Below are positions 23,370 through 59,500 of a stretch of DNA of 64,000 nucleotides, piece by piece. Every line of letters begins with the position of its first letter. The stretch's first letter is position 1. The stretch is taken from positions 30,977 to 94,976 of the forward strand of contig JAMOTM010000056.1 in assembly GCA_027002265.1 (NCBI GenBank), read 5' to 3'. This DNA comes from Aquificota bacterium. GTDB lineage: Bacteria > Aquificota > Aquificia > Desulfurobacteriales > DQVG01. Below the pieces are notes generated by a model. The model did not search any database and was not told where the DNA came from. It saw only the letters and a list, made by a program, of their open reading frames with translations. The position numbers and the translations under genes were made by a program.

Positions 23370-23810
23370 ATGAAAGCCGAAAAAACAAATTTTGTGAAAA
23401 TGTGGATAAAAAATTATTTAAATGAAGTTGGAAGCTTTGTAGGAACTTGGAGCGAACTTTCAAGACATACAAATGCTTCTGCAACTGTTATAAAAAAAGC
23501 GGTAGAAGAACTTGAAAAAGAAGGTTTTTTAAAAGTATCTTCCAAAAAAGGAAAAGGGGTTATTTTAGAAAAAAAATCTTCTCAGGAAACTTCCTTAGAA
23601 CAAACGTTTTCCCCTTTAGAAGAAAAATACTACGAAAAGCTTTTAAATAAACCCTTGAAAATTGTATTTAAAGATGCATCTTATTTAACTGGTATCTTAA
23701 AAGATTTTTCTCCACATACTATAAAACTTTTTAATTTAGATACTCGTTCTGAGATAGACATAGATAAAAATAAAATTGCTTATATTGTAATTGATAAAAC
23801 TACACTTTAA
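23370..23810 (+). CDS. Hypothetical protein: N-terminal winged-helix + C-terminal Sm/Hfq-like barrel (inferred)
   Basis: wHTH-like segment: WSELSRHTNASATVIKKAVEELEKEGFLKVSSKKGKGVIL. The C-terminal LLNKPLKIVFKDASYLTGILKDFSPHTIKLFN...IDKNKIAYIV follows the Hfq pattern (L..v.v.l.nG..l.G.i..fD...i.l......i.K.aI). Confidence 0.5.
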   Translation: MKAEKTNFVKMWIKNYLNEVGSFVGTWSELSRHTNASATVIKKAVEELEKEGFLKVSSKKGKGVILEKKSSQETSLEQTFSPLEEKYYEKLLNKPLKIVFKDASYLTGILKDFSPHTIKLFNLDTRSEIDIDKNKIAYIVIDKTTL

Positions 23811-23819
23811 GGGGGAAAA

Positions 23820-24326
23820 ATGATTACAAAAAAAACTTTAAGAGATGTTTATTTTGATTTTGTAAAACTTTTAGAGGAAAAACAAAAAATTGTAGTTTCT
23901 TCAGAAGAGCTTTCAAATATTTTAGATACAACTCCATTGGTAGTAAATATTCTTATTAAAGCTTTAAAAAACTCAAAAGAAATTTCTCTTATAGAAAAAG
24001 GAGATATATACGAGATTTCACCCATATATAGAATAAAAGATTTTGATAAAGTTTTAAAAGATATTTTAAAATCTTCTAAAGAAGAAAAGGATAGTAAAGA
24101 AAAAGAAATAATTTCTGAAAATTCTAAAGTTGAAACAAGTCAAACTGAAAAAAGTGTAAAACTAAAAAAAGAAAATTTAGTTAAATTTAAATTAAAAAAT
24201 AATGAAGTTCTACAAGGAGAATTCATAGAGGAAGATGAAAAAATAGTTTGTCTAGATTCTCAAAAATATAGATATTTAATTTATAAAGATAATATCTTAG
24301 AAAGGGAAAATGTAGAAAATGTCTGA
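23820..24326 (+). CDS. Hypothetical protein, paralogous architecture: winged-helix + Sm/Hfq-like barrel (inferred)
   Basis: wHTH-like segment: SSEELSNILDTTPLVVNILIKALKNSKEISLIEKGDIYEI. K/E/S-rich linker. C-terminal VKFKLKNNEVLQGEFIEEDEKIVCLDSQKYRYLIYKDNI is Sm-like. Confidence 0.5.
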   Translation: MITKKTLRDVYFDFVKLLEEKQKIVVSSEELSNILDTTPLVVNILIKALKNSKEISLIEKGDIYEISPIYRIKDFDKVLKDILKSSKEEKDSKEKEIISENSKVETSQTEKSVKLKKENLVKFKLKNNEVLQGEFIEEDEKIVCLDSQKYRYLIYKDNILERENVENV

Positions 24327-25470
24327 TTTAGGTCTGCCTGAAATTGAAAAGGAAATAGAAAATAATAAATATTTTAAAAAAGTAGAAAATGATTTATTTA
24401 TAAAATATTATTATAGAGCTAACTTGCCATCTATTTTTGATTCTCCCTTAAAAAGGGAACTTCGAGGTATTACTTTTTCAAAGAAAGAAAAAGATCTTGT
24501 AGCTCGCCCTTATCATAAGTTTTTTAACATAAATGAACATGAGGAAACTAAAGAGGATAATCTAAATAATAAAAATTTTATAGCTAGAGAAAAACTAGAT
24601 GGAAGTTTAATTTATTTTTGTTTTTATAAAAATAAACTTCATGCTTTTACTCAAAGACGTTTTGAAAATGAATATACTCAAAAAGCATGGGAAATTATAA
24701 ATAAAAATAAAAAACTTTTAAAATTTATAGAAAATTTAACTCAAAAAGGTTATACTCCACTTTTTGAACTTATCTCTCCAGATTTTCAAATTGTTATTCC
24801 ATACAAAGAAGATAAACTTATTTTAACTGAAATAAGAGAAAACAAAACTGGAAAATATGTTTTAGAAAATTTTGAAAATGAAATTAAAGAAAATAATATC
24901 CTTCTTCCAAAAAAATACTTTTTCAATTTAAAAGAAGCAAAAGATTTTTTAGAAAATAAAGATAATATAGAGGGTTTAGTTTTAAAAGATATAAATTCTT
25001 ATAAAAACACGTATCCTAATTTCCCTTTATTTGTAAAATTGAAATCTCCATGGTACTTAGAAAAACACTATGCTACTTCTTATCTTTCTAATATTCCAGT
25101 TCATAAACTGTTTTTAAATTACATTCAAAACAAATTAGATGATATTTTTTCAAATGTTTTAAATTCTTCTTTAAAAGAAAAAAAGTTAAAAGAACTAAAA
25201 CCCTATGTAGAATTTTTTGAATTTCTTTTAGAAAATTTAGAAAAAATATCAAAAAATATAGAGAAATTTGAAAACTGGAAGGAAAAAAAGAGTTTTATAG
25301 ATAAAGCTTTGGAAGATCTTTTAAAGAAAATAGAAAAAAAGTACAAAATCACTTTTCCAAAAGAAATACTTTTAGAAACTGTATATGCTATTATTAACAA
25401 GTCAAACTATGAAGAAAATTTAGGTTTAAAAATATACAGTCTTATGAAAAAAGGGAAGCTCAAACTTTAG
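24319..25470 (+). CDS. ATP-dependent RNA ligase, phage T4 Rnl1 (RnlA) family
   Basis: Nucleotidyltransferase motif I REK92LDGSL. Other matches: RPYHKFFNINEHE; FELISPDFQIVIPYKEDKLILTEIRENKTGKY; motif IV IEGLVLK; motif V FVKLKSPWYLEKH. All are collinear with T4 Rnl1 as I remember it. The start ATG overlaps the upstream stop (ATGTCTGA). Confidence 0.88.
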   Translation: MSDLGLPEIEKEIENNKYFKKVENDLFIKYYYRANLPSIFDSPLKRELRGITFSKKEKDLVARPYHKFFNINEHEETKEDNLNNKNFIAREKLDGSLIYFCFYKNKLHAFTQRRFENEYTQKAWEIINKNKKLLKFIENLTQKGYTPLFELISPDFQIVIPYKEDKLILTEIRENKTGKYVLENFENEIKENNILLPKKYFFNLKEAKDFLENKDNIEGLVLKDINSYKNTYPNFPLFVKLKSPWYLEKHYATSYLSNIPVHKLFLNYIQNKLDDIFSNVLNSSLKEKKLKELKPYVEFFEFLLENLEKISKNIEKFENWKEKKSFIDKALEDLLKKIEKKYKITFPKEILLETVYAIINKSNYEENLGLKIYSLMKKGKLKL

Positions 25471-26987: not shown

Positions 26988-28140
26988 AAATGTAGTAGCT
27001 ATAAGTTTAGTAAGCTTTTTTACAGATTTTTCTAGTAGTATGGTAACTACAATTTTGCCGCTGTTTATTGTTTATATTTTAAAAGAAGATGTAGATAAGC
27101 TTGGATATATAACCGGTATTGCTACCTTCACTTCCTATATTTTTAGAATTCTTTTTGGTTATCTTTCCGATAAATATAATAAAACTAAACCGTTTTTAAT
27201 CTTTGGATATTCGATTTCTACATTTACAAAACCTCTTTTTGCATTTTCTCATTCTTGGAAAGATATAGCCCTTTTAAGAAGCATAGAAAGACTTGGAAAA
27301 GCAATAAGAAGTGCTCCAAAAGATGTTTTAATTTCTTTTTATTCAAAAAAAGAGTCTGGAAAAGCGTTTGGTTTTCAGAAAATGTTAGATATGGCTGGGA
27401 ACATGTTTGGAGCTTTAAGTGTATTTTTAATCTTATATTTTTTTGGAAAAACAGAAAATATTTTTAAAAGTATTTTTCTTTTAACTATAATTCCAGGTTT
27501 AATTGCGCTTCTTATTCTTCTTTTTTTTGTAGAGGATATTAAAAAAGATAAAAAAGAAAAAAGAAAAAAGATTTCTTTAAAGGAGGAAAATTATTTTATT
27601 TACCTTATTTTATTTTCCTACTTTTTTTCTATGTTTTTTATGTTAAAAAAACCTTTCTTTATTGTAAAGGCGAAAGATTTTATAGATATAACTTATATTC
27701 CACTTTTAGTAATTCTTTTATATTTTATTCAAAGCATAAGTAGCTATATTTTTGGAGTAAGTATAGATAAATATGGCTGGGCTCCATTTTTTATTTTATC
27801 TTTAGTATTTGGAATTTTATCAATTATTTTTTTGAGTTTTGGAAAAATAATTTTCGCTTTTGTTTTTCTCGCATTATTTCTTATTGCCTCTACTAATTCT
27901 ATTAAGGTTTTTATTTCAAAACATTCAAAAAATAAAGGTATCATTTTTGGAATTTTTTATGCGGGAACTGCTATTTTTTCTTCCTTAGGTGCTATAGTAA
28001 CTGGAATAATTTGGAAAAATTTTGGATTTAAAATGGCTACTAAATTTTCTATTTTTGGGCTAATTTTTACTTTATTTTTTTCAATTTTCGTTTTAAGATT
28101 TTTTATTATTAAAAATAAACTAGAGGTTAACCATGAATGA
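26971..28140 (+). CDS. MFS transporter
   Basis: About 12 hydrophobic helices. The GYLSDKYNKTKP loop is typical of MFS motif A. Confidence 0.75.
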   Translation: MLNLNKNVVAISLVSFFTDFSSSMVTTILPLFIVYILKEDVDKLGYITGIATFTSYIFRILFGYLSDKYNKTKPFLIFGYSISTFTKPLFAFSHSWKDIALLRSIERLGKAIRSAPKDVLISFYSKKESGKAFGFQKMLDMAGNMFGALSVFLILYFFGKTENIFKSIFLLTIIPGLIALLILLFFVEDIKKDKKEKRKKISLKEENYFIYLILFSYFFSMFFMLKKPFFIVKAKDFIDITYIPLLVILLYFIQSISSYIFGVSIDKYGWAPFFILSLVFGILSIIFLSFGKIIFAFVFLALFLIASTNSIKVFISKHSKNKGIIFGIFYAGTAIFSSLGAIVTGIIWKNFGFKMATKFSIFGLIFTLFFSIFVLRFFIIKNKLEVNHE

Positions 28141-28594
28141 ACTTAGTAGAAAAAAGAAATATTTTGAAGCTTTAAAAAATTTAGATATTTTGAAAATTGA
28201 AAGTAATTTTGAGGTCATAAAAAGTGAGGAAGAAAAGGAAGATTCAAGGGTAGTCTTTAAAATAAAAATATCTTTAAAAGATGGTTTAGAAGTAAGCTCC
28301 CACGGAGAAGCTGAGCTTAAATCAAAAAATGCATTTAGATTAGCTGAAACAAGAGCCTTTTTAAGGGCTTTGGAGATAATATATGCTTTAAAAGGTTTAT
28401 CTTTTAAAGTTAAAGAAGAAAAGCAAAAAAGTGCTGAAAATAGAGGTCCTTCAAAAAAACAAATAGGTTATCTTAAACACCTTGCAAAGAGTTTGGGAAA
28501 AGATTTGAAAGATGAGGAAATAAAAAATTTAAATGAAAAGGAAGTTAGAGTTTTAATTGAAAAATATAAAAAAGAACTTGAGGAGAAAAAATGA
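28133..28594 (+). CDS. Hypothetical protein
   Basis: 153-aa ORF overlapping both neighbours (8 nt with the MFS stop; ATGA with the next gene). C-terminal helical module PSKKQIGYLKHLAKSLGKDL...EVRVLIEKY. Confidence 0.45.
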   Translation: MNELSRKKKYFEALKNLDILKIESNFEVIKSEEEKEDSRVVFKIKISLKDGLEVSSHGEAELKSKNAFRLAETRAFLRALEIIYALKGLSFKVKEEKQKSAENRGPSKKQIGYLKHLAKSLGKDLKDEEIKNLNEKEVRVLIEKYKKELEEKK

Positions 28595-29079
28595 AAATAG
28601 CTATATGTTCAGATAGTCACGATCGAATGGACAAAATTTTAAAGTTTGTAGATTTTGTTATAAATAAAAAAGTAAATTTAGTTATTCATCTTGGAGATTT
28701 TGTCGCTCCATTTACTTTTAAATTTGGCTTTAATAAACTAAAGGAGCACAACATTTCCTTTTTAGGAATTTTTGGAAACAATGATGGGGAAGTTTTCGGA
28801 TTATTAAAAACATGTTATGGAGAAATTTATAAGCCACCTTATTTTTGTGAAATATTTAATAAAAAATTTCTTCTTATGCATGAACCTTATTTTGTGGAAA
28901 ATTTAAGTTTAAAGGATGTAGATTATATTCTTTATGGCCACACTCATAAACAAGATATAAGAAAAAAGGAAAATTACACGATAATAAATCCAGGAGAACT
29001 TTGTGGCTATTTAACAAAAAAAGCAAATTTTGTAATTTTGGATTTAGAAAATAACAAAATAGAAAAAGTAGAAGTTTAA
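28591..29079 (+). CDS. Metallophosphoesterase, YfcE/MJ0936 family
   Basis: Motifs: ICSDSHD, GDFV, GNNDGE, HEP, GHTH. Confidence 0.85.
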   Translation: MKIAICSDSHDRMDKILKFVDFVINKKVNLVIHLGDFVAPFTFKFGFNKLKEHNISFLGIFGNNDGEVFGLLKTCYGEIYKPPYFCEIFNKKFLLMHEPYFVENLSLKDVDYILYGHTHKQDIRKKENYTIINPGELCGYLTKKANFVILDLENNKIEKVEV

Positions 29080-29109: not shown

Positions 29110-30402
29110 ATGATAAAGGAAATATCTCCTATAACAAGAATAGAAGGTCACCTTAAAGTAGAGGTAGAGACCTCTCAAAATGTGGTAAAAAAAGCAAAAA
29201 TAGTTGGGGAAATGTATAGAGGTATAGAAAAAATTGTTGAAAATAGGCATTTTATGGATCCCATAAGAATAGTTCAAAGAGTTTGTGGACTTTGCTGTGA
29301 AGTTCATGGACTTGCTTCATGTAAAGCTATTGAAAACGCAATAAATGCTCCAGTTGAACCAAATGGAGACAAAATAAGAGATTTAATTATTTGTTTGAAT
29401 ATAATTAATGATCATTCTCTACATTTTTATCAATTAACTTTACCCGATTATATAGATTTTAGCGTTTTAGAAAATGTTCCTCTTTTTTTAAAAAATCCTC
29501 CTAAAGCTCCAGATTTAATTAGGGATAAAATAGTTGCAAAAAAATTTTTAAAAAAATATTTAGATTCCTTTAAATTAAGAACTAGAGTTTGTCAAGGAAT
29601 TGCTATCTTAGGAGCTAAAACTCCATTTGCTCACGCCATTTTAGTAGGTGGAGTTTCTACGAATATAAGAACAGATGATGTAGGATTTTTTGTATCTTTA
29701 CTAAATGATGTAAAAGACTTTTTAGAGGAATATAAAAAAGATATTTTATTTTTAGCGGAAAACTTTAAACATTTATTTGATATAGGAAAAGGCCCTGGAA
29801 ATTACCTTTCAGTTCCTCACTTATATGTTCCGGGTAAAGTTTTAATAAATGGAAAAGAAGAAGAATTTGATGTTTCTTATGTTACGGAAGATGAACCTAA
29901 ATATGGATTTATAAAAACTCCAAGATATAAAGGATATGTAGTTGAAACAGGCCCTTTAGCTGAATGTATTTTAACGAAAAATAAAGAGTTTTATGATTTA
30001 TTAAAGAAATTAAATGTTCCAAAAGAAAAAGCTAACTCCTTAATGGGACGGCTTCTTGCAAGATATGTAGATAGCTTAATGGCTTATAGATATGCAAAAG
30101 ATCTTGTAGATAGTATTTTGGCAAAAGGAAATAATATTTATTGGAAAGATCCAAAGGGACTTTATGAAGGAGAAGGTTATGGTTTTGTAAAAGCTCCAAG
30201 AGGAGCTTTAATTCATTATATAAAAATTCAAGATAGTAAAGTGAAAAAATACTCTATTATTTCTCCATCTACTTGGAATTTTTCTGCAGGTGGTCCTGTA
30301 GAAATAGCTTTAAAGGGATGCCCGGTAGAAAGTGAAGATTTAGTAAATGTAGGAAGAATAATAAGAAGCTTTGATCCATGTACAGCGTGCTCTATTCAGT
30401 AG
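29110..30402 (+). CDS. [NiFe]-hydrogenase large subunit (short form, no C-terminal extension)
   Basis: N-terminal ITRIEGH and RVCGLCCEVH (RxCGxCxxxH). C-terminal Ni-Fe ligand pair in FDPCTACSIQ, immediately followed by TAG. RBS GGAGG. Confidence 0.9.
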   Translation: MIKEISPITRIEGHLKVEVETSQNVVKKAKIVGEMYRGIEKIVENRHFMDPIRIVQRVCGLCCEVHGLASCKAIENAINAPVEPNGDKIRDLIICLNIINDHSLHFYQLTLPDYIDFSVLENVPLFLKNPPKAPDLIRDKIVAKKFLKKYLDSFKLRTRVCQGIAILGAKTPFAHAILVGGVSTNIRTDDVGFFVSLLNDVKDFLEEYKKDILFLAENFKHLFDIGKGPGNYLSVPHLYVPGKVLINGKEEEFDVSYVTEDEPKYGFIKTPRYKGYVVETGPLAECILTKNKEFYDLLKKLNVPKEKANSLMGRLLARYVDSLMAYRYAKDLVDSILAKGNNIYWKDPKGLYEGEGYGFVKAPRGALIHYIKIQDSKVKKYSIISPSTWNFSAGGPVEIALKGCPVESEDLVNVGRIIRSFDPCTACSIQ

Positions 30403-30517
30403 GAAATTAATTTTTATAAAATAAATTTAAAATGGAAACTTAAAACTAATAAGTTTATTGGACGAAAATAATAAAAAAAATTTTTGGGATAAGGGGTCTT
30501 TTTAGGAGGAAATAAAA

Positions 30518-31441
30518 ATGAAAACTACTCGAAGAGAACTTTTAAAATATTTAGGTAGCTTAGCTGCTCTTTTAGGACTTCCAAAAAGTGTGGGAAAAGC
30601 TTATGCTGAAACTTTACGAAAACTTAAGGAAGGAAAAACTAAAATAATAATTATTTCTGGTCAGGCTTGTTCAGGATGTATTTTATCTGCAACTTATTCG
30701 GATGGTCCTTTTTTTGATGATTTAGTTATTATGATAAAAAATATTTTACATCCAACTTTAGCAGCTTCTCAGGGGAAAAATTTTATAAAAGAACTTTATA
30801 AAGTTATAGATGAAGGAGATTATATTTTAACTACGGAAGGTGCTGTTCCGGGAGAGGAAAAGTACTGTGAATTTGGTGGAAAACCTTATTCTGAAATTCT
30901 TTTAGATGCAGTAAGAAATGCTAAATTTTTAGTAAATATGGGGACATGTGCCTCTTATGGGGGTGTCCCTGCAGCAAAAGGTAATCCTACAAAAGCTATG
31001 AGTGTGCCCGAGTTTTTAAAGAAAAACGGTGTAAATATTCCTTATGTAAATGTTCCAGGATGCCCAGTTAGAAGCGATAGAATACTTGCAACTTGGCTTT
31101 ATATAGCAACTTTTGATAAGCTTCCTCCTATAAATCAAAAAATTAATGCTCCAAAAATGTTTTATGAAGATATTATTCACTATAACTGCGAAAGATATCA
31201 GTACTTTACTCAAGATATATATGCTAAAAAACCTGGAGATAAATTTAAATGCCTTTTGGCCCTTGGATGTAGAGGACCTATAACTTATGGAGATTGTTCT
31301 TATAAACGCTGGAACTGTGGAAAAAATTATTGTATAGCCGCCGGAACACCTTGTATAGGTTGTTCTAATCCAAAATTTCCTTTTGATAAGCCAATTTATA
31401 CATCTCCACAAGAAGTTTTAAAAGGTTTAAAGATTCAATAA
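30518..31441 (+). CDS. [NiFe]-hydrogenase small subunit with twin-arginine (Tat) signal peptide
   Basis: Tat motif: MKTTRRELLKYLGSLAALLGL...AYA. FeS ligand motifs: GQACSGC, GTCASYGG, PGCPV, HYNCERY, CLLALGCRGP, CIAAGTPCIGCSNP. Confidence 0.9.
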   Translation: MKTTRRELLKYLGSLAALLGLPKSVGKAYAETLRKLKEGKTKIIIISGQACSGCILSATYSDGPFFDDLVIMIKNILHPTLAASQGKNFIKELYKVIDEGDYILTTEGAVPGEEKYCEFGGKPYSEILLDAVRNAKFLVNMGTCASYGGVPAAKGNPTKAMSVPEFLKKNGVNIPYVNVPGCPVRSDRILATWLYIATFDKLPPINQKINAPKMFYEDIIHYNCERYQYFTQDIYAKKPGDKFKCLLALGCRGPITYGDCSYKRWNCGKNYCIAAGTPCIGCSNPKFPFDKPIYTSPQEVLKGLKIQ

Positions 31442-31455
31442 GAGGGTGAGGAAAA

Positions 31456-33795
31456 ATGAGATTAAAGTATTTATTACCCGGAATATCTTTTGTAACTTTA
31501 TTGATTTTAGCAATAATTTTCTTCATATATTCTCAATATTCCATAAATTCCATAAAAAAAGAAAATATCAACTTAGCTAAAGCTTTAGGTAATACTGCTT
31601 TTAGTAGTGCTTATGATTCTTTACGAAAAGGTAATATGGTACTTTTTGATCATATTTTAAAGTCTATTGCTTCTCAAAAAATTATTCGTGAGTTTAGTTT
31701 AGCAGATAAAAATGGAGTAATAGAATACTCTTCAAATCCATCTTTACTTGGAAAAAAAATCAATATTGAAGAAATAAAAAAGAAATTTAAAATAAAAGAA
31801 TTAAAACCAGAAACAATGTATTTAACTTTAGATAAAAATGAGAAAGCAACTTTAGTTTTTAAAGCTATAAAAACAATTCCTTATTGTATTAGATGTCATA
31901 CTACCTGGAAGCTAGGAGAAATAAATTCCTATTATATTTTAAAAGTAGATGCAAGAAATATATTAACCGTAATAACTACAACCCGACTAGTGAACCTTCT
32001 TTACTTACTGGCAGCTATTGTTATTTTATTTATCACTTTATTCATTTTAAATCACCAATTTATCAGACCTCTTGAAAAAGTGAAAAGTGCTTTAAATGAA
32101 ATTTCTAAAGGAAATCTGAAAGTTAAACCTAAAATCTATGTAAATAACGAAATTCAGGAGGTTGCAAGAGCATTAAATAGAACTTTAAAAAATATAAATT
32201 TTATATTTTCTCAAATAAATGAGTTTGCAGAAAATGTAAATAAAGGTAATGTTTTTGTAAATATAGATTATGGACAAACTCAAGGAGATTTTAGGGCTAC
32301 CTTAGAAAAATTAAATGAAATAGTCAAAAATCTTCAAAAATTTGTGAAAGGATTAGAAGATGTTTTAAATAAAATTGAATCTATGAACATAGGAGTAAGT
32401 GTAAATGGAGCTTCTGCTCGGGGAAATTTAATAAAGATTTATGAGTATTTCCAAAAGGTATTTAATGATCTTAAAGAAACTATAGAAACAGTAACTAAAT
32501 CTATAAAAGAACTTTCTAGCAAACTTGCGGAAGGAGAATTTGAAACCGAGGATCCCCTTAAATATAAAGGAATATGGCAAGATATTGTTATATCTTTAAA
32601 TGCTATTGTAAATAGTATTGAAAAAGTAACTACCTATTTAAAAAGAATTCTTGAAGATACTATAAATGGAAAATCTTCTCAAATTGATATAGAAGAGTTT
32701 AAAGGAATTTATAGAGAAATTATTGAAAATCTTTTAGATTTTCAAAATAAACTTAAAGAAGCAATTAAAGAAGTTCAAAATATTTCTAAAGCTATTGCAG
32801 ATGGTAATTTTGATACATCTTTAAATACAGCTAGTTTACCACCGGCTCTATTACCAATAGGAGAGGCTGTGGAAGATATAAAAAATAATATTAACCGTGT
32901 TATTGTTGCTCTTGATAAAGCTATTAAAAAAATGGCCATGGGAGATTTATCTGTTCGTATAAATGAAAACGAATTTAAAGGTAAGTATAAAGAAATTGCC
33001 AAAATGTTTAATTATGGAGTTAGACAGCTTGCTCAAGCCATTGCAGTTTCTTTATCTACTTTTGAACTTATTGGTGAAAGAGTAGAAAAAACAATTCAGG
33101 AACTTATGAAAACCATAAATACCTTCAACATGCAAAATAAAAAGACTGAAGAAATTTCTCAGGAAATCCTACGTCTTATTGACGTTCTAAGGAATTTAAA
33201 GAAAGAAATGGATAGGGTAAAACAAATTTCCAGGGTTACCGAGGAAGATTTAGTGAAAACTCAGGAATCCTTTGAACATATTGCAAATATTCTTAAAACC
33301 CGTCTAGAAGAACTTGATAAGATCGTTGATATTATTCTTTCTATTTCTGAGCAAACAAATTTACTTGCCTTAAATGCGGCAATTGAAGCGGCCCGTGCTG
33401 GAGAAATGGGAAGAGGTTTTGCAGTAGTTGCAGATGAAGTTAGAAAGCTCTCAACTCAAGTTTCCGAACAAGCTAATGAAATACGTTCTACTATTTCTCA
33501 ACTTTCAGATGATATTAGAAAATATATCTTTGAAAATCTCTCTAAGCTTCTTGAAAATATTAAAAATAGCATGAATAACCTTTTAGATGTTATTGAAAAA
33601 GTATCTACCACTACCGAAAAAGAAGCATCTCAAGCTGAAAAATCTAAAGAAGATATTATTGCGCTTGAAAATCTTGCAAAAGAATCTAGCGAAAAAATTA
33701 AGAAAATTGTGGAAGACTTTAAAAAGGTTGAAGAACTTCTTACAGATTTATCCGAAGTATCTAAGAAATTTAAAGTTGGAGATTTAAAGAAATAA
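31456..33795 (+). CDS. Methyl-accepting chemotaxis protein with periplasmic CXXCH (heme c) sensor domain and poly-HAMP-like array
   Basis: TM1 about aa 6-25 and TM2 about aa 176-199. Periplasmic loop with C144-I-R-C147-H148 (nt 31885-31899), the only Cys residues in 779 aa. About 400 aa of repeated HAMP-like units. Canonical hairpin [35 protein letters not shown]. Confidence 0.9.
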
Positions 33796-33872: not shown

Positions 33873-34151
33873 ATGAAAAAGTTGTTAGCAATTTTAGGTA
33901 TATTGTTTGGAACAGCTTTTGCTCAATGCTATGTACCTTGTCAAACTTGCGTATCTGGATATGTTGTAATGTATCCCGGAACATATGTTCCAAATGTTTG
34001 TAATAATCCTTGTTGCTGTGAATACTGTAGTTTTTGTTATTCTTCTTGCTGTTTGCCTTCAGGGTGTATTTACGGCCCTGTTAATTGTCCAACATGTTAT
34101 CCAACATGCTGCCCAACTCAGTCTATAATTGTTAATCAAGTGGCAAACTAA
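33873..34151 (+). CDS. Secreted cysteine-rich small protein (16 Cys in the 75-aa mature part)
   Basis: Strong RBS GGAAGGAGGAG. Signal peptide MKKLLAILGILFGTAFA|Q. The mature part is C/P/Y/T/V-rich, with CCC, CC, CxxC and CxC runs and no K, R, H or D. Confidence 0.7.
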   Translation: MKKLLAILGILFGTAFAQCYVPCQTCVSGYVVMYPGTYVPNVCNNPCCCEYCSFCYSSCCLPSGCIYGPVNCPTCYPTCCPTQSIIVNQVAN

Positions 34152-34161
34152 GGAGGAAAAA

Positions 34162-34509
34162 ATGAAAAAAATATTTATATCTTCTTTAGTAGTCACATCC
34201 TTCCTTCTTGTAGGTTGTGAATGTACTGATGTACAAACAACTCCTCCGCAAACTACTTCTTTTCAAGCCAATATTCCACAAATTCAAACATGTGATGCAT
34301 GTGCTAATCAAACAAGTACAAAAATTACGAAGATTTTACCTACTGAAAAAAAAGTAATTCAAAATGTAATAACCGTAAATCCAAAACCAATATGTACTTG
34401 CCCAAGCATACCAATGGTTCCAGCAAATTATTTTGTAACATATGAACCACTTAATGATTATCCAGTCACCTATAAGACAAAATACACAGAACCTTGCTCT
34501 TGCTACTAA
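34162..34509 (+). CDS. Small lipoprotein with four CxC/CxxC pairs
   Basis: ATG 34162 preceded by AGGAGG (34151-34156). Lipobox LLVGC. Cys pairs: CEC, CDAC, CTC, CSC. The ORF-track start 34129 lacks an RBS. Confidence 0.65.
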   Translation: MKKIFISSLVVTSFLLVGCECTDVQTTPPQTTSFQANIPQIQTCDACANQTSTKITKILPTEKKVIQNVITVNPKPICTCPSIPMVPANYFVTYEPLNDYPVTYKTKYTEPCSCY

Positions 34510-35356: not shown

Positions 35357-35938
35357 ATGAAAAAATTTTTATCCCTTTTTCTTGTAGGAGCGGGATTTCT
35401 CCCGCTCTACTCTTGTGTTTATCAGGAAGATGTTACACCTTATTATATTGACAAATATTCTGAGCCTATTTCATACGCCAATATAAAGTATGTTCCTTTA
35501 GATGATCTTTTAAATCACATAAAACCTCAAGAAATAAAATATGTTTTTGATAAAATAGTAATCTCTATGTGTCCATGTATATGTAAATATAATAAAGTTA
35601 TTGTTACAGATTTACCAAATCTTTCTTATTTAAAAGTAGATAAGCTTTCCTCTTATTTTGGAGATACTTTAAGAACATCTGTTTCAGATATGTGTCATAA
35701 ACCTACCATTTTAGCTGAATTTTCAAAGTATCTAAAGATAAATACTCTTGGAATAAAAGTAAGAAGTAGAAAAGTAAATGATCTATTAAATAAAAAGTAT
35801 AAAGGATATTCTGTAGCTTTTTTAACAGGAACTTATCAAATAAATAATGATAAAATTACTGTGTTTGTAAAGTTTATAGATGCAAAAACTGGGAAGATTC
35901 TTTGTGCCAAGGAAGGTATTATAAATATATATCCTTAA
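35357..35938 (+). CDS. Lipoprotein with FlgO-like C-terminal segment
   Basis: Signal plus lipobox-like FLPLYSC. C-terminal VAFLTGTYQINNDKITVFVKFIDAKTGKIL repeats the motif of the preceding gene. Confidence 0.45.
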   Translation: MKKFLSLFLVGAGFLPLYSCVYQEDVTPYYIDKYSEPISYANIKYVPLDDLLNHIKPQEIKYVFDKIVISMCPCICKYNKVIVTDLPNLSYLKVDKLSSYFGDTLRTSVSDMCHKPTILAEFSKYLKINTLGIKVRSRKVNDLLNKKYKGYSVAFLTGTYQINNDKITVFVKFIDAKTGKILCAKEGIINIYP

Positions 35939-40267: not shown

Positions 40268-40936
40268 CTATAAAGAAATATCTAAAATATCATAATTTTC
40301 TAAAATTTCTTTTTTTGTTCCAAACTTTAAAAATTTAATAGTATCTTTTTCCAAATATGTATATAAAGCTGCATAATCTCCATAATAACTTGGAATTTCC
40401 ATAATATATATATTCTCACTTAAAGCCTTTGAGTGCTCTTCTAAATTTCCAAGAGATTTTATAAAAGCATCAAATAAAAAGGGTTTTTGAGCTAAAGAGG
40501 CAATAAAGCTTTTTCTAAAATTTTTAGAAAATAAAACTTTTTTGTTTTCTTTAGATGCTACAAAAGAAGAAAGTGCATTTAAAGCTATTTCTAAAAAAAG
40601 CTCTAAACGAGAAGGTGTAAAAATTTGTTTTTTTTGAATTTCAATTTCATGGGAAAGTTCAAAAATTTTTTGGTTAAGTTTATTAATTTTTTCTTCTCTT
40701 TTTCTTATTTCATTTTTTAAATAATTGATATCCTCTTTTGTCTCTAAAGAACTTTTTTTCTTTTTAGCCAGCAACATTTTTTTATCTTTGGAAATAGATT
40801 TTTTTTCTGCTTTTTCCTTTTTTTCCGATTCTATTTTTTCTAAGGTTTGAGTAGAAGATGAATTTTGAAGAGCTTTTTCCCTTTGCAAAAATATAGCTTC
40901 AAGATCTTTTATATCTTCATTTGATAATGGATACAT
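40268..40936 (-). CDS. Hypothetical coiled-coil protein
   Basis: ORF with K/E-rich coiled-coil centre. ATG 40936 is preceded by GGGGGTGA. An alternative start at 40951 lies inside that RBS-like sequence. Confidence 0.4.
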   Translation of the reverse strand: MYPLSNEDIKDLEAIFLQREKALQNSSSTQTLEKIESEKKEKAEKKSISKDKKMLLAKKKKSSLETKEDINYLKNEIRKREEKINKLNQKIFELSHEIEIQKKQIFTPSRLELFLEIALNALSSFVASKENKKVLFSKNFRKSFIASLAQKPFLFDAFIKSLGNLEEHSKALSENIYIMEIPSYYGDYAALYTYLEKDTIKFLKFGTKKEILENYDILDISL

Positions 40937-41135
40937 TTCTATCACCCCCATAGAACTTCTAACCTGATTTTAAAATTTAAACTACTTTTTCATATCTTCA
41001 AATTTAATTTTTTGAAGCGAAATTAAAATTAATTATACCGAACTTAGAAATTGGAAAGATGTAAAAATTTTGTAAAAAAATGATAAAATTACTTTGCTTC
41101 AAGATTTAAATGATTTAAATATAAGGAGGGTAAAA

Positions 41136-43170: not shown

Positions 43171-43893
43171 CTAAAATAGTTTTCCAAATTTTTCTTTATT
43201 TAAAAGCTCTTTTCTTATAGAATTACAATATAAATGAGCAAGCCTGGTAGGTTCTGGTAAACGGTATCCTTTTAAAGATTTTTTCACAATCTCTAATGCT
43301 GTTAAAGGTGTTAGATAATTTCCGGGAGATATATAAATAGGAGTTACTTTTTTTCTACTTCTTAAAACATATCCTAAAATTTCTTTTGTTTTTTCATCAT
43401 ATAAAGGAACATAACTACCTTTTTCTAAAGGTAGCTCTTCATGTTTACCATATAAAAGTTTTTTAGCACAACCTATAGTAGGAATCTCTAAAGTAGCACC
43501 TATGTGAGAGGCAATACCCATTTTCCTAGGATGAGCAATTCCGTGACCGTCTACTATCAGTACATCTGGTTTTATTTTTAATTTTTTATAAGCTGAAAGA
43601 ATTAAAGGAGCTTCCCTAAAAGCTAAAAATCCAGGAATATAAGGCATATTAACTATATCTATACTATAAGTTTTATCCACAATTTTCCAAGTTTTAAAAT
43701 CAAAAACTAATATAACTCCTATTCCTCTACAAGGATTTGAGAAGGGATTTAGAAAGGTTAAGTCACAACCAGCAATATATCTAATTTTATCTATATTTAT
43801 CTTATCTTCTAAGATAAGTTTCTTTCTTAAAGAATACTGAATTTTTTTTAAATCTTCTAAAAAATTATTTTTCTTCAAATTTATTTTCCTCAA
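43171..43893 (-). CDS. nfi: Endonuclease V
   Basis: Motifs: IAGCDL, FREAP, DVLIVDGHGIAHPRKMGIASHIG, PIYISPGN. Confidence 0.93.
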   Translation of the reverse strand: MRKINLKKNNFLEDLKKIQYSLRKKLILEDKINIDKIRYIAGCDLTFLNPFSNPCRGIGVILVFDFKTWKIVDKTYSIDIVNMPYIPGFLAFREAPLILSAYKKLKIKPDVLIVDGHGIAHPRKMGIASHIGATLEIPTIGCAKKLLYGKHEELPLEKGSYVPLYDEKTKEILGYVLRSRKKVTPIYISPGNYLTPLTALEIVKKSLKGYRLPEPTRLAHLYCNSIRKELLNKEKFGKLF

Positions 43894-44731: not shown

Positions 44732-45370
44732 TTATAAAGAAGATAAGATATCAACCTGTTTATTATTTATATCAATTAAAGCACCTATTTTTCCAGGATT
44801 TACAAAAAGAGTTTCTTTATATATTTCAATAGAGCCAGCAAATTCATGAACGTGTCCACAAATATAGATATCTATATTAAAAGTATCTACTATTTTCCTT
44901 AAAGCTTTTGAACCTCTTAAATTATCTAAAATTCCAAAAGGGGGAGAGTGAGCTAAAAATATATCTATATGAGAAACTTTGTAATTTTCAAATAAGTCCA
45001 AAAGTTCAACTTCTCTTATAACTTCATCAAACTCATAAGGCGTTCCCGCATATGGAGCTTCGCAGCCTCCCGTTCCTACAATAATTTTTCCTTTATATTT
45101 TTTTACTTTTAAATCTATAACCTCTATGTTTTTAAAATCATATTTTTTTATTAAACTTTCTATAAATTCACTTCTTTCGTTGTTTCCACCTACAAAAAAA
45201 GTTTTAACTTGATTTAGAAGTTCCAAAATGGCTTTAATAGGACCTCTTTCCGAAAATGAAATATCTCCAGCACAAAATACTGGAAGATTATAAGCTTTTG
45301 CAAAATTAATAATTTTTGTAAGTCTAACAACATCTCCATGAATATCACTAATAGCAATTATTTTTTCCAT
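44732..45370 (-). CDS. Metallophosphoesterase (calcineurin-like)
   Basis: Motifs: IAISDIHGD, AGDISF, GGNNE, AHSPP, CGHVHE. Confidence 0.8.
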   Translation of the reverse strand: MEKIIAISDIHGDVVRLTKIINFAKAYNLPVFCAGDISFSERGPIKAILELLNQVKTFFVGGNNERSEFIESLIKKYDFKNIEVIDLKVKKYKGKIIVGTGGCEAPYAGTPYEFDEVIREVELLDLFENYKVSHIDIFLAHSPPFGILDNLRGSKALRKIVDTFNIDIYICGHVHEFAGSIEIYKETLFVNPGKIGALIDINNKQVDILSSL

Positions 45371-50062: not shown

Positions 50063-50635
50063 ATGGAAAAAGCAAAAGTTTTACTTCACATATGTTGTGC
50101 TCCATGTGCATGTTATCCTATTGAAAAATTAAAGGAAGAAAATTTTGAAGTTTTTGGCCTTTGGTATAACCCAAATATTCATCCTTTTACAGAATATAAA
50201 AAACGTTTAGAGGAAGTAAAAAAACTAGAAAGTATATATAACATAAAAGTTATATATATAATAGAATATCCGTTGGAAACTTGGATTCAAGATAAAGTTT
50301 TTAGAGAAAATAGAAAAATAAGATGTAAGCTTTGTTATTTTGATAGATTTAAAAGAACTGTATCTGTCTGTAAAGGTGGAAGATTTGATTTTTGGACCTC
50401 AACTTTATTTTATAGCAAATTCCAAAATCACAAGCTTATGAAAGAGGTTGCCTTAAGTTTATCTGAAAGTTACAAGGTAAAATTTTTATATAAAGACTTT
50501 AGAGAAGGTTGGAAAGAAGGTATTGAGAAAAGTAAAGCTTTAGGCCTTTATCGTCAAAACTATTGTGGGTGCATATACTCTGAGAAAGAAAGATATGAAA
50601 ATGAAATAAAAAAATTAAAGGAACTTTATAAATGA
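50063..50635 (+). CDS. queH: Epoxyqueuosine reductase QueH (DUF208)
   Basis: Motifs: LLHICCAPCACYP, CKLCY, YRQNYCGC. Confidence 0.85.
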   Translation: MEKAKVLLHICCAPCACYPIEKLKEENFEVFGLWYNPNIHPFTEYKKRLEEVKKLESIYNIKVIYIIEYPLETWIQDKVFRENRKIRCKLCYFDRFKRTVSVCKGGRFDFWTSTLFYSKFQNHKLMKEVALSLSESYKVKFLYKDFREGWKEGIEKSKALGLYRQNYCGCIYSEKERYENEIKKLKELYK

Positions 50636-51324
50636 TATTAAAAATATTATTAAGTTTCATTTATATATCTTGGGCTACAAAACTTTTTTTATGTTTATAT
50701 GTTCCCCAAAAATTTCTTATGCTTCCTTTTTACATAAGTAAATATAAATATAATTATGAAGTTGAAGTAAAATTTTATCTTTCTAAGAAAATTCCAAGAA
50801 GCTTTTTTAATTCAAATTTTGCAATTTTTATTTTGCCTTATAAAGAAGGAATAAAATATCCCCTGCTTCATGCCGTAACTGTACTTTGCAAAACCAATAG
50901 CACGTACTATACTCTTTTTATAAATAAAGACGGAGATTACGAATATACTAATTTAAAAGGTGTTCTCCAAGCTTGGTATAAAGGGAGTTATGAGCTATAT
51001 AATAAAGATTATAGATTTTTATTTGAAAATATATTTAATATAACGCTTCCAAAAGATATTGTTTTTTATACTCCTACTCAAGGTATTTTGAAACTTTTTG
51101 ATCTAAAAAAAAGATATAAGGTAAACAGTAATCAAAAAAATAAAGCTTCTAAAAAGAATATAAAGACCTCTTTAAATAAAAGTAAAAGCAACTTAAAAGC
51201 AAATATAAATACAACAAAAAATAATAAAACTTCAAAAATTGAAAAAAGTTATAAAAAAATATTAAAAATTCCTTGTGTAAAAAATAAAGATCCAAAGATC
51301 ATAGAAAAAACTTTAAAAAAATAA
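50632..51324 (+). CDS. Hypothetical protein with N-terminal hydrophobic segment and K/N/S-rich basic tail
   Basis: ORF with ATGA overlap to queH. No recognisable motif. Confidence 0.4.
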   Translation: MILKILLSFIYISWATKLFLCLYVPQKFLMLPFYISKYKYNYEVEVKFYLSKKIPRSFFNSNFAIFILPYKEGIKYPLLHAVTVLCKTNSTYYTLFINKDGDYEYTNLKGVLQAWYKGSYELYNKDYRFLFENIFNITLPKDIVFYTPTQGILKLFDLKKRYKVNSNQKNKASKKNIKTSLNKSKSNLKANINTTKNNKTSKIEKSYKKILKIPCVKNKDPKIIEKTLKK

Positions 51325-55392: not shown

Positions 55393-56586
55393 ATGGCATT
55401 AACTTATGAAAGCTCAGGAGTTTCCATTAAAGAGGGTGATAGTTTTGTAGAAAAAATAAAAAAACTAGTTCCAATAACTTATGACGAAAATGTATTAGAG
55501 GGAGTAGGTCTTTTTGCTTCTTGTTATAAATTAGATAAAGATAATGTCCTTGTTTCTTCTACAGATGGAGTTGGAACTAAGATAAAAATTGCTCAAGAAG
55601 TGGATATACACTCAACTATTGGAATAGATCTAGTTGCGATGTGTGTAAATGATTTAATTACAACTGGGGCAAAACCTTTATTTTTCTTGGACTATCTTGC
55701 AACAGGAAAACTTGATAAGGAAATTCATTTTCAAATAATAAAAGGTATAGTAGAAGGTTGTAAAGAAAGTGAGTGTGCCTTAATTGGTGGAGAAACTGCA
55801 GAGATGCCTGGAGTTTATAAAGATAAAGAATATGATTTAGCTGGTTTTGCAGTAGGAAATGTAAAACTAAAAGATTTAATTTTACCTACAGTTTTTGGAG
55901 ATGAAAAAAAAGCAAGAAAAATATATGGTAAATATTTTGATATAGCTAAAGATAGAAAAATGAAGGAAGGAGATATTATTGTTTACCTTCCTTCTAGTGG
56001 AATTCACTCAAATGGATACTCTCTTGTTAGAAAACTCTTTTTTGAAATCATTGGAAAAAAGTTAAGACTTTCTCCAAAGGAAATCTTAAAAAAATCTGTA
56101 AAAGAAATATTAAGAAAATTAAAACTTTTAGAAAAAGAAAAAAAAGATTTTTATAATGATCTTTTAGAAACATTACCCAAAGAATTTTTAGAAAAATATT
56201 TATATGAAATTTTACTTACACCTACGAAGATATATGTAAAAGATGTAAAAAATATACTTAAAAAGTACAAAGTTAAAGCTATGGCACATATTACCGGAGG
56301 AGGAATTCCCGGAAATTTATCTCGGGTTTTACCCAAGGATTTAAAAGCAAAAATTTATCTTGATATAGAAAAAGATGTGAAATTTGATAAAGTTGTTATA
56401 AAAGCTTTAAAGGATACATCTATCGTTCTTCCTATTTTTAAGCTTATTCAAAAACTTGGAAATGTACCTTTAGAAGATATGTTAAAAACTTTTAATATGG
56501 GCGTTGGTTATTTAATTGTTTTAGATAAAAAAGAAGAAAATAAAGTTTGTGAAGATAACTTAAAAATTATTGGAGAGATTATTTAA
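55393..56586 (+). CDS. purM: Phosphoribosylformylglycinamidine cyclo-ligase (AIR synthetase)
   Basis: Motifs: YESSGVSI, STDGVGTK, GGETAEMPGVY, DLAGFAVG, SSGIHSNGYSLVRK, HITGGG, FNMGVG. About 50 aa longer than typical PurM because of K/E-rich insertions. Confidence 0.92.
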   Translation: MALTYESSGVSIKEGDSFVEKIKKLVPITYDENVLEGVGLFASCYKLDKDNVLVSSTDGVGTKIKIAQEVDIHSTIGIDLVAMCVNDLITTGAKPLFFLDYLATGKLDKEIHFQIIKGIVEGCKESECALIGGETAEMPGVYKDKEYDLAGFAVGNVKLKDLILPTVFGDEKKARKIYGKYFDIAKDRKMKEGDIIVYLPSSGIHSNGYSLVRKLFFEIIGKKLRLSPKEILKKSVKEILRKLKLLEKEKKDFYNDLLETLPKEFLEKYLYEILLTPTKIYVKDVKNILKKYKVKAMAHITGGGIPGNLSRVLPKDLKAKIYLDIEKDVKFDKVVIKALKDTSIVLPIFKLIQKLGNVPLEDMLKTFNMGVGYLIVLDKKEENKVCEDNLKIIGEII

Positions 56587-56587
56587 G

Positions 56588-59500
56588 ATGGCAAAGCTCT
56601 TGGGTATAAAACTTGAAAATTTTAAATCTTTTAAAAATTTGGATTTACCTATTCCAAGTGGCTTTACAGCCATTGTTGGTCCAAATGGAGCTGGAAAATG
56701 TCTTTTAGGAAACTCTCTTTTACACTTAGATACTGGAAAAATAAGTATAGAAAAACTTTTTGAAAAAATAAAAAAGAATTATCTTAAAAGAAAAGTAGAG
56801 AATAATACAGAAATTTTAATTCCAAGGGAAAAGTATTTAATTTTTAGTGTTAATTTGGATACCTTAAATATAGAAAAAAAAGAAATTTTAGCTATAACAA
56901 AAAGAAGAGAAAAAAGATTTGCAATTTTAAGAACAAAATATAAAAGAGAAATTGAAGCTACTTTAAATCATCCTTTTTTTGTTTTAGAAAAAAATAAAAT
57001 AGTTTCAAAACCTTTAAGTTTTTTAAAAGAAGGAGAGAAAATTTTAACTTATCCTTTAGATTTAAAGTTAAGCTTTAAAAAAGAAAAAAAAGAAAAATAT
57101 AACTTTTCATCTCAAAAAGATTATTATCTTGAAAATTTACCCGATATAAGTTTTCTTTTAAAAGAAGCTTTTAATATGGATACTAATTCTTTTATAGATA
57201 AAAAAGGACTTTTACAAATTTTAGAATTTCAAAAAGTTTTGAATAAAAAAATTTATTCAAAGGAAGCTTTAAAACTTTTAGAAAATTTAGCAAAAACTCC
57301 TTTAACTTGGGATGAAATAGAAGATATTGAAGTTATAGAAAAGGAAGTTTATGTTTATGATATTCAAGTAAAAGATAATAGTAACTTTTTTGCAAATGAT
57401 ATTTTGGTTCATAATTCTAATATAGTAGATGCCTTTTGTTTTATTTTAGGAAAAGGCTCTTCAAAAGCTTTAAGAGGAAAAACTTTTAAGGATCTAATCA
57501 CTTTATTACCTAAGCGTCCTAAAGAAGGGAAAGTTTGTATATTTTTTTCCATAAATGATAAAGAAAAGGAAAAGTTAAATGCAAAATCAAATCTTTTAGC
57601 TTTGGAAAGAAAAATATATCTAGATAAAGATGAAACATCTTATCGTATTTATTATTTAGATGGAGAAGAAAATGAAATTTTTAATTTTTTAAGAGAAAAA
57701 AAAGGAAATGAAATTTTTAAAAGAACTATAAAAACAAAAAAAATTTCAAAAAGTGAAACTTCAGATATTCTTTCAAAGTTAAATTTACCTCCTCATGCTC
57801 CTAACGTTATTCAACAAGGAGATTTGTTAAAAATAATTTCTATGTCAAATTTAGAAAGAAGAAAGGTTATAGATGAAATTTGTGGAATTTGGGAATTTGA
57901 AGAGAAAAAGGAAAAAGCTTTAGAAGAGTTAAAAGTAGCCAGAGAATATTTAGAAAAAATAGAAGTTCGTCTTTTAGAAGTAAAAAATCTTTTAGATCAC
58001 TTAAAAAAAGAAGTAGAGAAGCTTGAAAAATATGAAAAATTGAAAAGAAAGTTAAATTTACTTTTGGATATATATTATCTTCGTCTTTATATTTTTTACA
58101 AAAACAGAATAAGAAAATTAAAAGAAACTTTACAAGAGAAAAGAAAAATTTTAGAAAATATAGAACTTGAACTTGAAAATTTAAAAAAACATAAAAAAAA
58201 TTTTTTAGAAAAACTTTCTGAAATAGATGCAAAAATATTTGAATTTAAGGAAGGGGAATATAAAGAAAAATTTGAAAATTATTCTAAGATAAATATAGAA
58301 ATATCTAATCTTTCTAAAGAAATTAAAGATCTTGAAAGTAAGTTAAAAGCTTTGGAAAATAAACTTTCTTTAACTTTAAAAGAAAAAGAAAACTTATCTT
58401 TTCAAAAAGATACTTTAGAAAAAGATTTATCAAATTTAAGATCACTTTTAAAAGATCTTTTGGAAGATATAAAGATTTTAGAGGAAAAAAGAAAAAAAAT
58501 ATCTAACTCCTATTTAAAATTAAGTCAAAAGTTAGAAGAGCTTTCGGAGAAAGAAAGAAATCTTTTAGAAAAATTTTCTAAGCTTTCTCAGGAAGTTCAA
58601 AATCTTTCCCATAAAATAGAAATTTTAAAAAAAGAAAGGGATATAAAGCTAAAGGAAATAGAAAATTTAAAGTCTTTAAAAGAACAGCTTACAAAGGAGA
58701 TAGAAAATTTAAAAAATGAAAAATATAAATATGACATAAAAGATATTTTGAATCGCCTGGAAGCCATAAAAGAAGAAGAATTTTCCTTAAAAGATGACAT
58801 AAAAAAACTTACAGAAGAAATAAAAACTTTAGAAAAAGAAAGAGAAAAAATTTTTAGAGAACTTATTGAAGAAGAAGCAAAGATAAAGAACTTAGAAAAA
58901 TACTCAGTTTCTTATGATGAAGCTTTAAAAAAGCTCATGCAAGCAAATTTACCTGGTATTATAGATATAGTAGGAAATTTAGGTAAAACTTCCTTAGAAT
59001 ATAAAACTGCTTTAGAAGCAAGTGCAGGAGGAAGGCTTAATTTCATTGTTGTAGATACCTTTGAAAATACAAAAAGAATAATAGAGTTTTTAAAACGTCA
59101 TAATCTTCCGCGATTTACATTTTTGCCCTTAGATACAATTAGATATCGAGAAACGCCTTATATAGAGCATGAAAAAATTATAGGAAGAGCTATAGATTTA
59201 ATAGAATTTGAAGAAAAATATCGTCCTATTTTTGAATTTGTATTTTATGGAACATATATAGTTAGAAATTTAGATGATGCAAGAGAACTTTTTGAAATTT
59301 ATCCAAATTGGAGATTCGTAACTTTAGAAGGAGATATTTTGGAACCTTCAGGTGCTGTATCTGGAGGAAAGTTAAAAAGTCGAGCACAAATTTCTATAAA
59401 AATCGATTATTCTCATCTAGAAACTTTAAAAAATAAATTAAAAGAGATATCAAAAAGTTTAGAAGAGAAAAAAAATATTTTAGAAAATCTAAAAAGAAAA

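Follow-up and report, generated by a model that had tools for sequence, protein, structure and literature searches.

The 64,000-nucleotide stretch of Aquificota bacterium DNA analyzed here (GenBank assembly GCA_027002265.1, contig JAMOTM010000056.1, positions 30,977 to 94,976 of the forward strand; hereafter the window) carries three consecutive genes that encode two small proteins, which we call pA and pB, and an RNA ligase resembling RNA ligase 1 (Rnl1) of phage T4. As judged by profile comparison, pA and pB are orthologous to, and strongly diverged from, a tandem pair of "long Hfq" proteins that is specific to the Desulfurobacteriaceae, a family of hot-vent bacteria, and in which a winged helix-turn-helix (wHTH) domain precedes an Hfq domain. 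The ligase is, by its sequence, a new cellular member of the Rnl1 family and not an orthologue of T4 RnlA, and its juxtaposition with the Hfq-like pair is a clade-specific rearrangement. The reading we favor, with a probability of roughly 0.6, is that these are three co-expressed but separately evolved RNA-metabolism genes in a tightly packed housekeeping string of a Desulfurobacteriaceae member with a G+C content of ~26%. The genes and their parts are as follows.

23370..23810, + strand: pA, 146 amino acids (aa); diverged protein predicted to be orthologous to member A of the Desulfurobacteriaceae wHTH-Hfq pair
23370..23573, + strand: wHTH of pA (aa 1-68), modeled by AlphaFold2 (AF2) as helix 2-20, strand 22-26, helices 27-34 and 38-50, and strands 54-58 and 63-68
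23613..23792, + strand: Hfq-like Sm barrel of pA (aa 82-141, helix plus five strands), from the Foldseek match to Staphylococcus aureus Hfq 1kq2
23820..24326, + strand: pB, 168 aa; diverged protein predicted to be orthologous to member B of the wHTH-Hfq pair
23838..24023, + strand: wHTH of pB (aa 7-68), modeled by AF2 as helix 7-21, strand 24-27, helices 28-34 and 39-51, and strands 55-60 and 63-68, with a predicted local distance difference test score (pLDDT) of 83-90
24177..24314, + strand: Hfq-like Sm barrel of pB (aa 120-165), from Foldseek matches to Hfq structures
24319..24326, + strand: 8-nt overlap of the pB stop and the ligase start, ATGTCTGA, read directly from the sequence
24319..25470, + strand: Rnl1-type ATP-dependent RNA ligase, 383 aa, from PF09511 (E = 3.1e-26) and the T4 Rnl1 structures
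24445..25068, + strand: predicted adenylyltransferase domain of the ligase (aa 43-250), from the T4 Rnl1 alignment; motif I K92, motif III E150, motif IV E218-G219, motif V K240/K242
25069..25467, + strand: C-terminal helical region of the ligase (aa 251-383), not recognized as the T4 Rnl1 C-terminal domain; the 2c5u alignment ends at residue 294

An earlier reading of this DNA from its letters alone (the sequence-only reading) had placed three open reading frames (ORFs) here, with the start codon of the ligase overlapping the stop of pB, and both features are present as it described. We found pA, pB and the ligase to be genuine genes subject to purifying selection: each has conserved orthologues, and within the clade that shares the arrangement (the trio clade) the ratio of nonsynonymous to synonymous substitution rates (dN/dS) is 0.11-0.30 across the three (0.11-0.23 for pA, 0.17-0.30 for pB). 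The neighboring rpe gene, for comparison, has a dN/dS of 0.05-0.14 in the same clade.

AF2 models of the two small proteins show the shared architecture that had been proposed for them: a wHTH (elements in the order H-E-H-H-E-E), a charged linker modeled with low confidence, and a five-strand barrel, with a mean pLDDT of 83 for pA and 71 for pB. The helix preceding the barrel is modeled in pA, the helix beside the pB barrel lacks a confident model, and the pB linker is disordered at aa 84-117. Both chains end 3-5 residues past the last barrel strand. In Foldseek searches of the PDB, the pA barrel aligned to S. aureus Hfq 1kq2 with a target TM-score of 0.88 and a root mean square deviation (rmsd) of 1.5 Å, and the top 50 matches of the pB barrel were all Hfq (target TM-score 0.6-0.72, 22-33% identity), bearing out the earlier suggestion that the C-terminal segments are Sm/Hfq-like. 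By direct sequence search, pB matched Hfq families weakly (Pfam Hfq_1, E = 0.016, and Hfq, E = 0.032; NCBIfam Hfq-related, E = 0.0055; profile against S. aureus Hfq 1kq1, E = 0.011). Neither protein reached the Pfam PF17209 threshold of 27 bits: pB scored 14.3 bits, and pA gave no Hfq match (LSM, E = 0.12). The wHTH of pA likewise produced weak matches, to HTH_11, GMT-wHTH and HTH_24 (E = 4e-4 to 3e-3) and to the Csa3/CasR wHTH. Compared with each other, pA and pB gave nothing in register by BLASTP and a nonsignificant hhalign E value of 0.56.

The relationship between the two proteins, and of both to Hfq, was recovered through intermediates. Word-indexed searches reached only close relatives of pA and pB, and an exhaustive profile search was needed to find their canonical relatives; run with pA against 1.84 billion representatives, it returned 3 true clusters only. 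One of these, P0141 (canonical A), is a 169-aa protein in which a K/E-rich linker joins a wHTH to a canonical Hfq domain (LVYKHAVATI; PF17209, 52.6 bits). The next gene on the contig overlaps that of P0141 by 4 nt and encodes a 165-aa paralogue of the same architecture (canonical B; AYKHAISTI; PF17209, 48.7 bits). Both pass the Pfam Hfq cutoff of 27 and miss the NCBIfam TIGR02383 cutoff of 61.7. Using hhalign, full-length alignments joined canonical A to canonical B (E = 7e-20) and the pB family to canonical B (E = 1e-5), and the pA family aligned to canonical A (E = 1.8e-20); canonical A and B share ~31% identity full-length (tblastn, E ~3e-13). Searched against the PDB, the canonical profiles retrieved Hfq structures at E = 1e-10 and 2e-7, with Aquifex Hfq 5szd among them (E = 3.5e-9 and 1.9e-7). 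Because this chain runs through canonical A and B, pA and pB can be placed as diverged paralogues with Hfq-derived C-terminal domains. The paralogy claimed by the sequence-only reading is thus established by way of the canonical intermediates, while being invisible in direct comparison.

A genome scan found the A/B pair in 10 further species-level Desulfurobacteriaceae genomes in addition to the trio clade. B-type members are labeled "RNA chaperone Hfq" in Desulfurobacterium pacificum (WP_283400403.1) and a Thermovibrio sp. The canonical pairs (loci L015:6001-7004, L019-L028 and L033), from Desulfurobacteriaceae of 39-50% G+C, encode strongly conserved ~165-aa proteins with the motif YKHA; they carry an invariant KKxKKK patch directly before the Hfq helix and lack the usual rim arginines. 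What pA and pB have in common with Hfq of S. aureus (1KQ2) and Aquifex aeolicus (5SZD) is the Sm fold, with homology traced via the canonical Desulfurobacteriaceae orthologues. Typical Hfq, however, is a single stand-alone domain, whereas pA and pB are tandem paralogues with the Sm domain fused to an N-terminal winged helix and a charged linker; the window clade also falls under the Pfam threshold and has its proximal-site residues replaced. No described wHTH-Hfq fusion and no bacterial Rnl1-Hfq link was found in the open-access and preprint literature searched, and the tandem pair is apparently undescribed, its members being labeled simply Hfq in databases. The sequence-only reading had known of no described system joining wHTH-Sm proteins to an Rnl1 ligase. 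That statement agrees with our literature search as far as wHTH-Hfq fusions go, but wHTH proteins with a different Sm-fold domain, the WYL regulators PafBC, BrxR and CapW, are well known (PMC6789036, PMC4012209).

We weighed whether pA and pB are themselves ligand-sensing transcription factors of the PafBC/BrxR/CapW kind and not RNA chaperones, with the wHTH binding DNA, the Sm barrel sensing a nucleic acid fragment or nucleotide, and a regulon that may include the ligase. The wHTH-WYL(-WCX) regulators PafBC, BrxR, CapW and DriD do share with pA and pB an N-terminal wHTH followed by an Sm-fold barrel, the fold that WYL domains have in common with Hfq, and PafB and PafC are adjacent paralogues forming a tandem pair (PMC6789036, PMC4012209). 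Weak HTH_11 and HTH_PafC matches point the same way, as does the alignment of full-length pA to CapW 7tb5 and BrxR 7qfz (Foldseek, E = 5e-4). Those whole-chain matches are poor overall, however, with a query TM-score of 0.31-0.38 and an rmsd of 11-13 Å. Pfam gave no WYL (PF13280) match at E ≤1, the only related match being PADLOC WYL/Csx1 to pB (E = 0.007), and both proteins end just past the barrel, with no ferredoxin-like WCX domain. On these domain tests (no WYL signature, no WCX) we rejected WYL membership. The barrel is instead of Hfq type, and in the canonical orthologues the Hfq domain is bona fide and retains Q8, F42 and YKH, residues whose pocket forms only between neighboring ring subunits. 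The genes also sit in housekeeping operons, not beside a defense or DNA damage regulon, and no intergenic region of promoter or operator size precedes them (26 nt after rpe in the window; ~30 nt after accC in relatives). Together, these data make a ligand-sensing regulator an improbable identity for pA and pB.

Within the trio clade the pair has diverged markedly from its canonical form. Identity between trio-clade and canonical sequences is 32-42% for A and 20-32% for B, compared with 64-92% and 66-93%, respectively, among canonical lineages; the corresponding values for the ligase are 42-49% and 51-72%. Aligned with Escherichia coli Hfq, canonical A and B retain the proximal-site residues Q8, F42 and Y55-K56-H57. 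At these positions pA has E, then H/T/N, then D-K-N, keeping K56; in pB no Q is aligned, the second position is K/N and the motif reads Y-K-D/N, with Y55 and K56 kept. As the proximal uridine pocket (Q8, F42, H57) is gone, RNA specificity has presumably changed in the trio clade. Pocket loss and fast evolution are compatible with a functional shift or, alternatively, with drift throughout a lineage whose genome is extremely AT-rich.

The ligase matched Pfam PF09511 at 93.0 bits, above the cutoff of 28.3 (E = 3.1e-26), with the match spanning positions 2-227 of the 227-position profile, and a phmmer search of the PDB returned only T4 Rnl1 structures (2c5u, 9do4 and 5tt6; E ~1e-20). In the best of these alignments (HMMER; 2c5u, E = 4.7e-20), ligase residues 43-294 correspond to T4 residues 49-293, and both the collinearity with T4 Rnl1 and the T4 segments that the sequence-only reading had quoted proved accurate. 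Motif I reads K92-L-D-G95 (KxDG), with K92 as its lysine, as had been proposed. K92, E150, E218-G219 and K240/K242 align with T4 K99, E159, E227-G228 and K240/K242, and the Rnl1-specific positions upstream of motif I, R49, K67 and F69, align with T4 R54, K75 and F77. In a 22-sequence alignment spanning the family clade, a Caulobacter phage and a eukaryote, R49, K67, F69, K92, G95, E150, E218, G219, K240 and K242 are invariant. From the mutagenesis literature we take the essential residues of T4 Rnl1 to be R54, K75, F77, K99, G102, E159, E227, G228, K240 and K242, the counterparts, in this order, of the ten invariant positions. The position of the motif Ia lysine (T4 K119) falls at Q112-R113, where the clade consensus is TQK and the window has R. 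By these motifs the protein looks like a catalytically intact Rnl1-type RNA ligase.

Its relation to the T4 enzyme (Rnl1/RnlA; 2C5U, 5TT6) lies in the PF09511 fold family, motifs I (KxDG), III, IV and V, and the upstream Arg, Lys and Phe. Because the score against the NCBIfam equivalog TIGR02308 (78.4 bits) is far under the cutoff of 242.25, we class the ligase as a family member and not as a T4 RnlA equivalog. Identity to T4 Rnl1 is only ~25-30%, and the C-terminal region is not recognizable as the T4-type tRNA-specificity domain: PF20819 had no match in the window ligase or in the precomputed domains of its clade and is present in many phage-type homologues. Unlike that of T4, the ligase gene is chromosomal and vertically inherited, with no Pnkp partner or anticodon nuclease nearby. 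Its closest relatives form a clade of ~44 proteins scoring at least 283 bits and labeled Phorcysia, Thermovibrio or Desulfurobacteriaceae, after which scores fall to 125 bits. That the closest characterized ligase comes from phage T4, and that many homologues are viral, could suggest a degraded prophage remnant or an anti-phage defense island around the gene. The window, however, is core chromosome (rpoD, dnaG, glnE, secD, SMC, rpe, pyrD, flgHI, ispG and ddl). The ligase belongs to a tight family-specific clade with stable synteny and matches the host in G+C content, and PADLOC found no significant match for the ligase or the pair, only weak wHTH matches. We rejected a prophage or defense origin, which is hardly credible given the core-chromosome context and the PADLOC result; the cellular locus assumed by the sequence-only reading holds, and a prophage remnant is effectively ruled out.

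Comparison of gene neighborhoods showed that the pair and the ligase ordinarily occur apart, each among conserved housekeeping neighbors of its own. The order GGDEF-SLT-rpe-pA-pB-ligase is found in the window and in three further lineages (L003; L008-10/L029; L011-14), and only on contigs of 24-26% G+C, whereas every other pair or ligase locus has 39-50% G+C. In the genome-scan species where flanks extend far enough, the canonical pair lies in the order efp-accB-accC-A-B-(reverse-strand OmpR-like gene)-uvrD, and no ligase was found within up to 8 kb of it (less at contig ends). The sole addition among the metagenome matches listed, contig L033, carries a canonical pair and no ligase on 6 kb. 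Outside the trio clade the ligase occurs in the order dapA-protoglobin-dapB-hisA-ligase at seven distinct loci, overlapping hisA, a true HisA (TIGR00007, 289 bits), by 1-4 nt; no end-healing enzyme from the Pfam families searched lies beside it there. The Hfq pair was linked to the ligase at none of 11 pair loci and none of 7 ligase loci outside the trio clade. Of the ancestral neighbors, dapB, hisA, efp, accBC and uvrD were sought across the window and none was found. The sequence-only reading had reasoned that a module should keep its synteny in other genomes; the trio does so, but only in a narrow clade of ~25% G+C comprising four species-level lineages.

Several genes recur near the solitary ligase. 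A protoglobin and PsiE-domain protein (~340 aa) lies between dapA and dapB at every ligase-alone locus (L001-L007, L030, L031 and L034). The slot after the ligase is variable: an HNH endonuclease gene is directly downstream at L006:6187-6720 and L034:6205-6741, with a GmrSD_N-domain gene next in L034, and rplU-rpmA, thi4 or a GGACT gene occupies it in other lineages.

The sequence-only reading had cast the three genes as an RNA-repair or RNA-processing module, a possible but unlikely arrangement in which the diverged pA/pB Hfq-like ring would capture RNA 3' ends or broken tRNA and present them to, or regulate, the ligase. The type of ligase and the paralogous wHTH-Sm proteins on which that proposal was built stand; the dedicated three-gene module fares less well, with linkage restricted to one clade. 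The 3'-OH end of RNA, to which Hfq and Lsm rings bind, is one of the two termini that a ligase needs, and the pB-ligase overlap is kept across the four lineages (8 nt in the window versus 4 nt in L003, L008 and L011). Translational coupling is nevertheless no evidence of partnership, since the ligase is coupled equally to hisA elsewhere and 16 of 43 same-strand neighbors in the window (37%) overlap (for 21 of 43 the gap is ≤10 nt). Nor is conservation of the trio decisive: the upstream GGDEF-SLT-rpe synteny is equally conserved among these close relatives, so that retention of the trio is confounded and may simply follow from how closely these lineages are related. The trio clade shows no gain of a ligase domain in the 22-sequence alignment. 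At the Pfam level, among window ORFs of at least 110 aa, there are no RtcB, RtcA, Pnkp, Hen1 or PrrC-type domains, in keeping with the earlier statement that no healing enzyme or anticodon nuclease lies in the window. Known RNA repair cassettes (RtcR-RtcA-RtcB; Pnkp-Hen1) resemble the trio in setting a ligase beside a possible nucleic-acid-sensing protein, by analogy to the CARF domain of RtcR. They differ in that the trio has no healing enzyme, methyltransferase or sigma-54 activator and is linked only within its clade. In addition, RtcB uses GTP and joins 3'-P to 5'-OH ends, while the family of the trio ligase is ATP dependent and, by analogy, would seal 5'-P/3'-OH ends.

Four points weigh against our preferred reading of separately evolved genes. 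The trio is intact in all four clade lineages even though its downstream neighbor has changed (pyrD in the window, GATase-carA in the other three). The Hfq pair diverged disproportionately, faster than the ligase, on the very branch that gained the ligase linkage, and both this acceleration, which would be consistent with a ligase-related shift in function, and the loss of the uridine pocket are specific to the ligase-linked clade. For no single genome outside the trio clade could ligase and pair both be demonstrated: the assemblies with ligases P0040 and P0043 are different from those with pair loci, and a shared metagenome assembly (ERZ23495891) for L034 (ligase) and L017 (pair) is only a hint of co-occurrence in the same genome. 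Finally, genomes of the low-G+C clade may hold a second, canonical pair elsewhere. The most specific form of the modular idea, in which the repurposed wHTH-Hfq pair, its canonical uridine pocket lost, now serves as an RNA-end-capturing or regulatory subunit of the Rnl1-type ligase in a bacterial Sm-ring-assisted ligation or repair machine, strikes us as distinctly unlikely.

In the reading of three separately evolved genes, the Sm domains of pA and pB, each joined to a winged helix by a flexible K/E-rich linker, would assemble into a ring, probably of mixed A/B composition, that binds single-stranded RNA. The winged helices would be tethered above the proximal face, giving a second contact with nucleic acid or a partner. 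The ligase would be the family's vertically inherited Rnl1-type enzyme and, by analogy with T4 Rnl1, would adenylylate itself on K92, transfer AMP to a 5'-phosphate and seal this end to a 3'-OH. Their adjacency would have been born by rearrangement in the ancestor of the low-G+C clade, and would give co-transcription and translational coupling while being, by itself, no sign of a dedicated complex.

The family-wide tandem pair is a novelty independent of the ligase and better supported than Sm-assisted ligation; it would be a new Hfq architecture, and possibly the first heteromeric Hfq ring with DNA-binding-type domains. Hfq is commonly portrayed as an Sm protein that stands alone and forms homohexamers. 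A conserved and strongly constrained tandem wHTH-Hfq pair in a deep-branching thermophilic family would broaden this concept: such a protein could be heteromeric and could link its binding of RNA to that of DNA or a partner. The pair can also be compared concretely with the wHTH-WYL regulators, in which the sensor domain likewise has an Sm fold. Furthermore, the family keeps a chromosomal Rnl1-type ligase without a healing partner, and to our knowledge no cellular role is known for such an enzyme. With one translationally coupled unit and a remodeled Hfq pocket, the low-G+C clade provides a natural experiment on whether an Sm ring can serve an RNA ligase.

The surrounding DNA is compact. Long ORFs cover 94% of the window, whose G+C content is ~26%, and the trio is part of a string of mixed functions at 16.5-29 kb (CoA-enzyme activase, GGDEF, SLT, rpe, the trio, pyrD, PAP2, MFS, phosphoesterase and hydrogenase). 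No terminator-like site was found on the + strand between 19.5 and 29.5 kb in a promoter and terminator scan, whose yield of sites did not exceed that of shuffled sequence. Scans of the 64 kb detected neither a tRNA gene nor an Rfam family at gathering threshold.

Other genes in the window can be noted briefly. There are two small calcineurin-type metallophosphoesterases, at 28591-29079 (+) and 44732-45370 (-). The first (Metallophos_2, E = 1.5e-25) belongs to the same gene string as the ligase, 3 kb farther downstream; because it does not adjoin the trio in L003, L008 or L011, it is probably unrelated to the trio. An endonuclease V gene lies at 43171-43893 (-), 18 kb from the ligase. Endonuclease V leaves 3'-OH/5'-P nicks at inosine, an end chemistry sealable by an Rnl1-type ligase. 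The ORFs at 28133-28594 (153 aa), 34129-34509, 35357-35938, 40268-40951 and 50632-51324 had no Pfam match at the thresholds used. Inserted in the N-terminal ATPase head of the SMC ORF (1460 aa; 56570-60952, +) is an intein splicing domain (PF14890, E = 8e-22, aa 65-282). At 29110-33795 (+), a short ORF resembling a NiFe-hydrogenase large subunit (430 aa) is followed by a small subunit with a Tat signal (30518-31441) and then by a methyl-accepting chemotaxis protein; the order and size of these hydrogenase-like genes are unusual, and they possibly encode a sensory hydrogenase.

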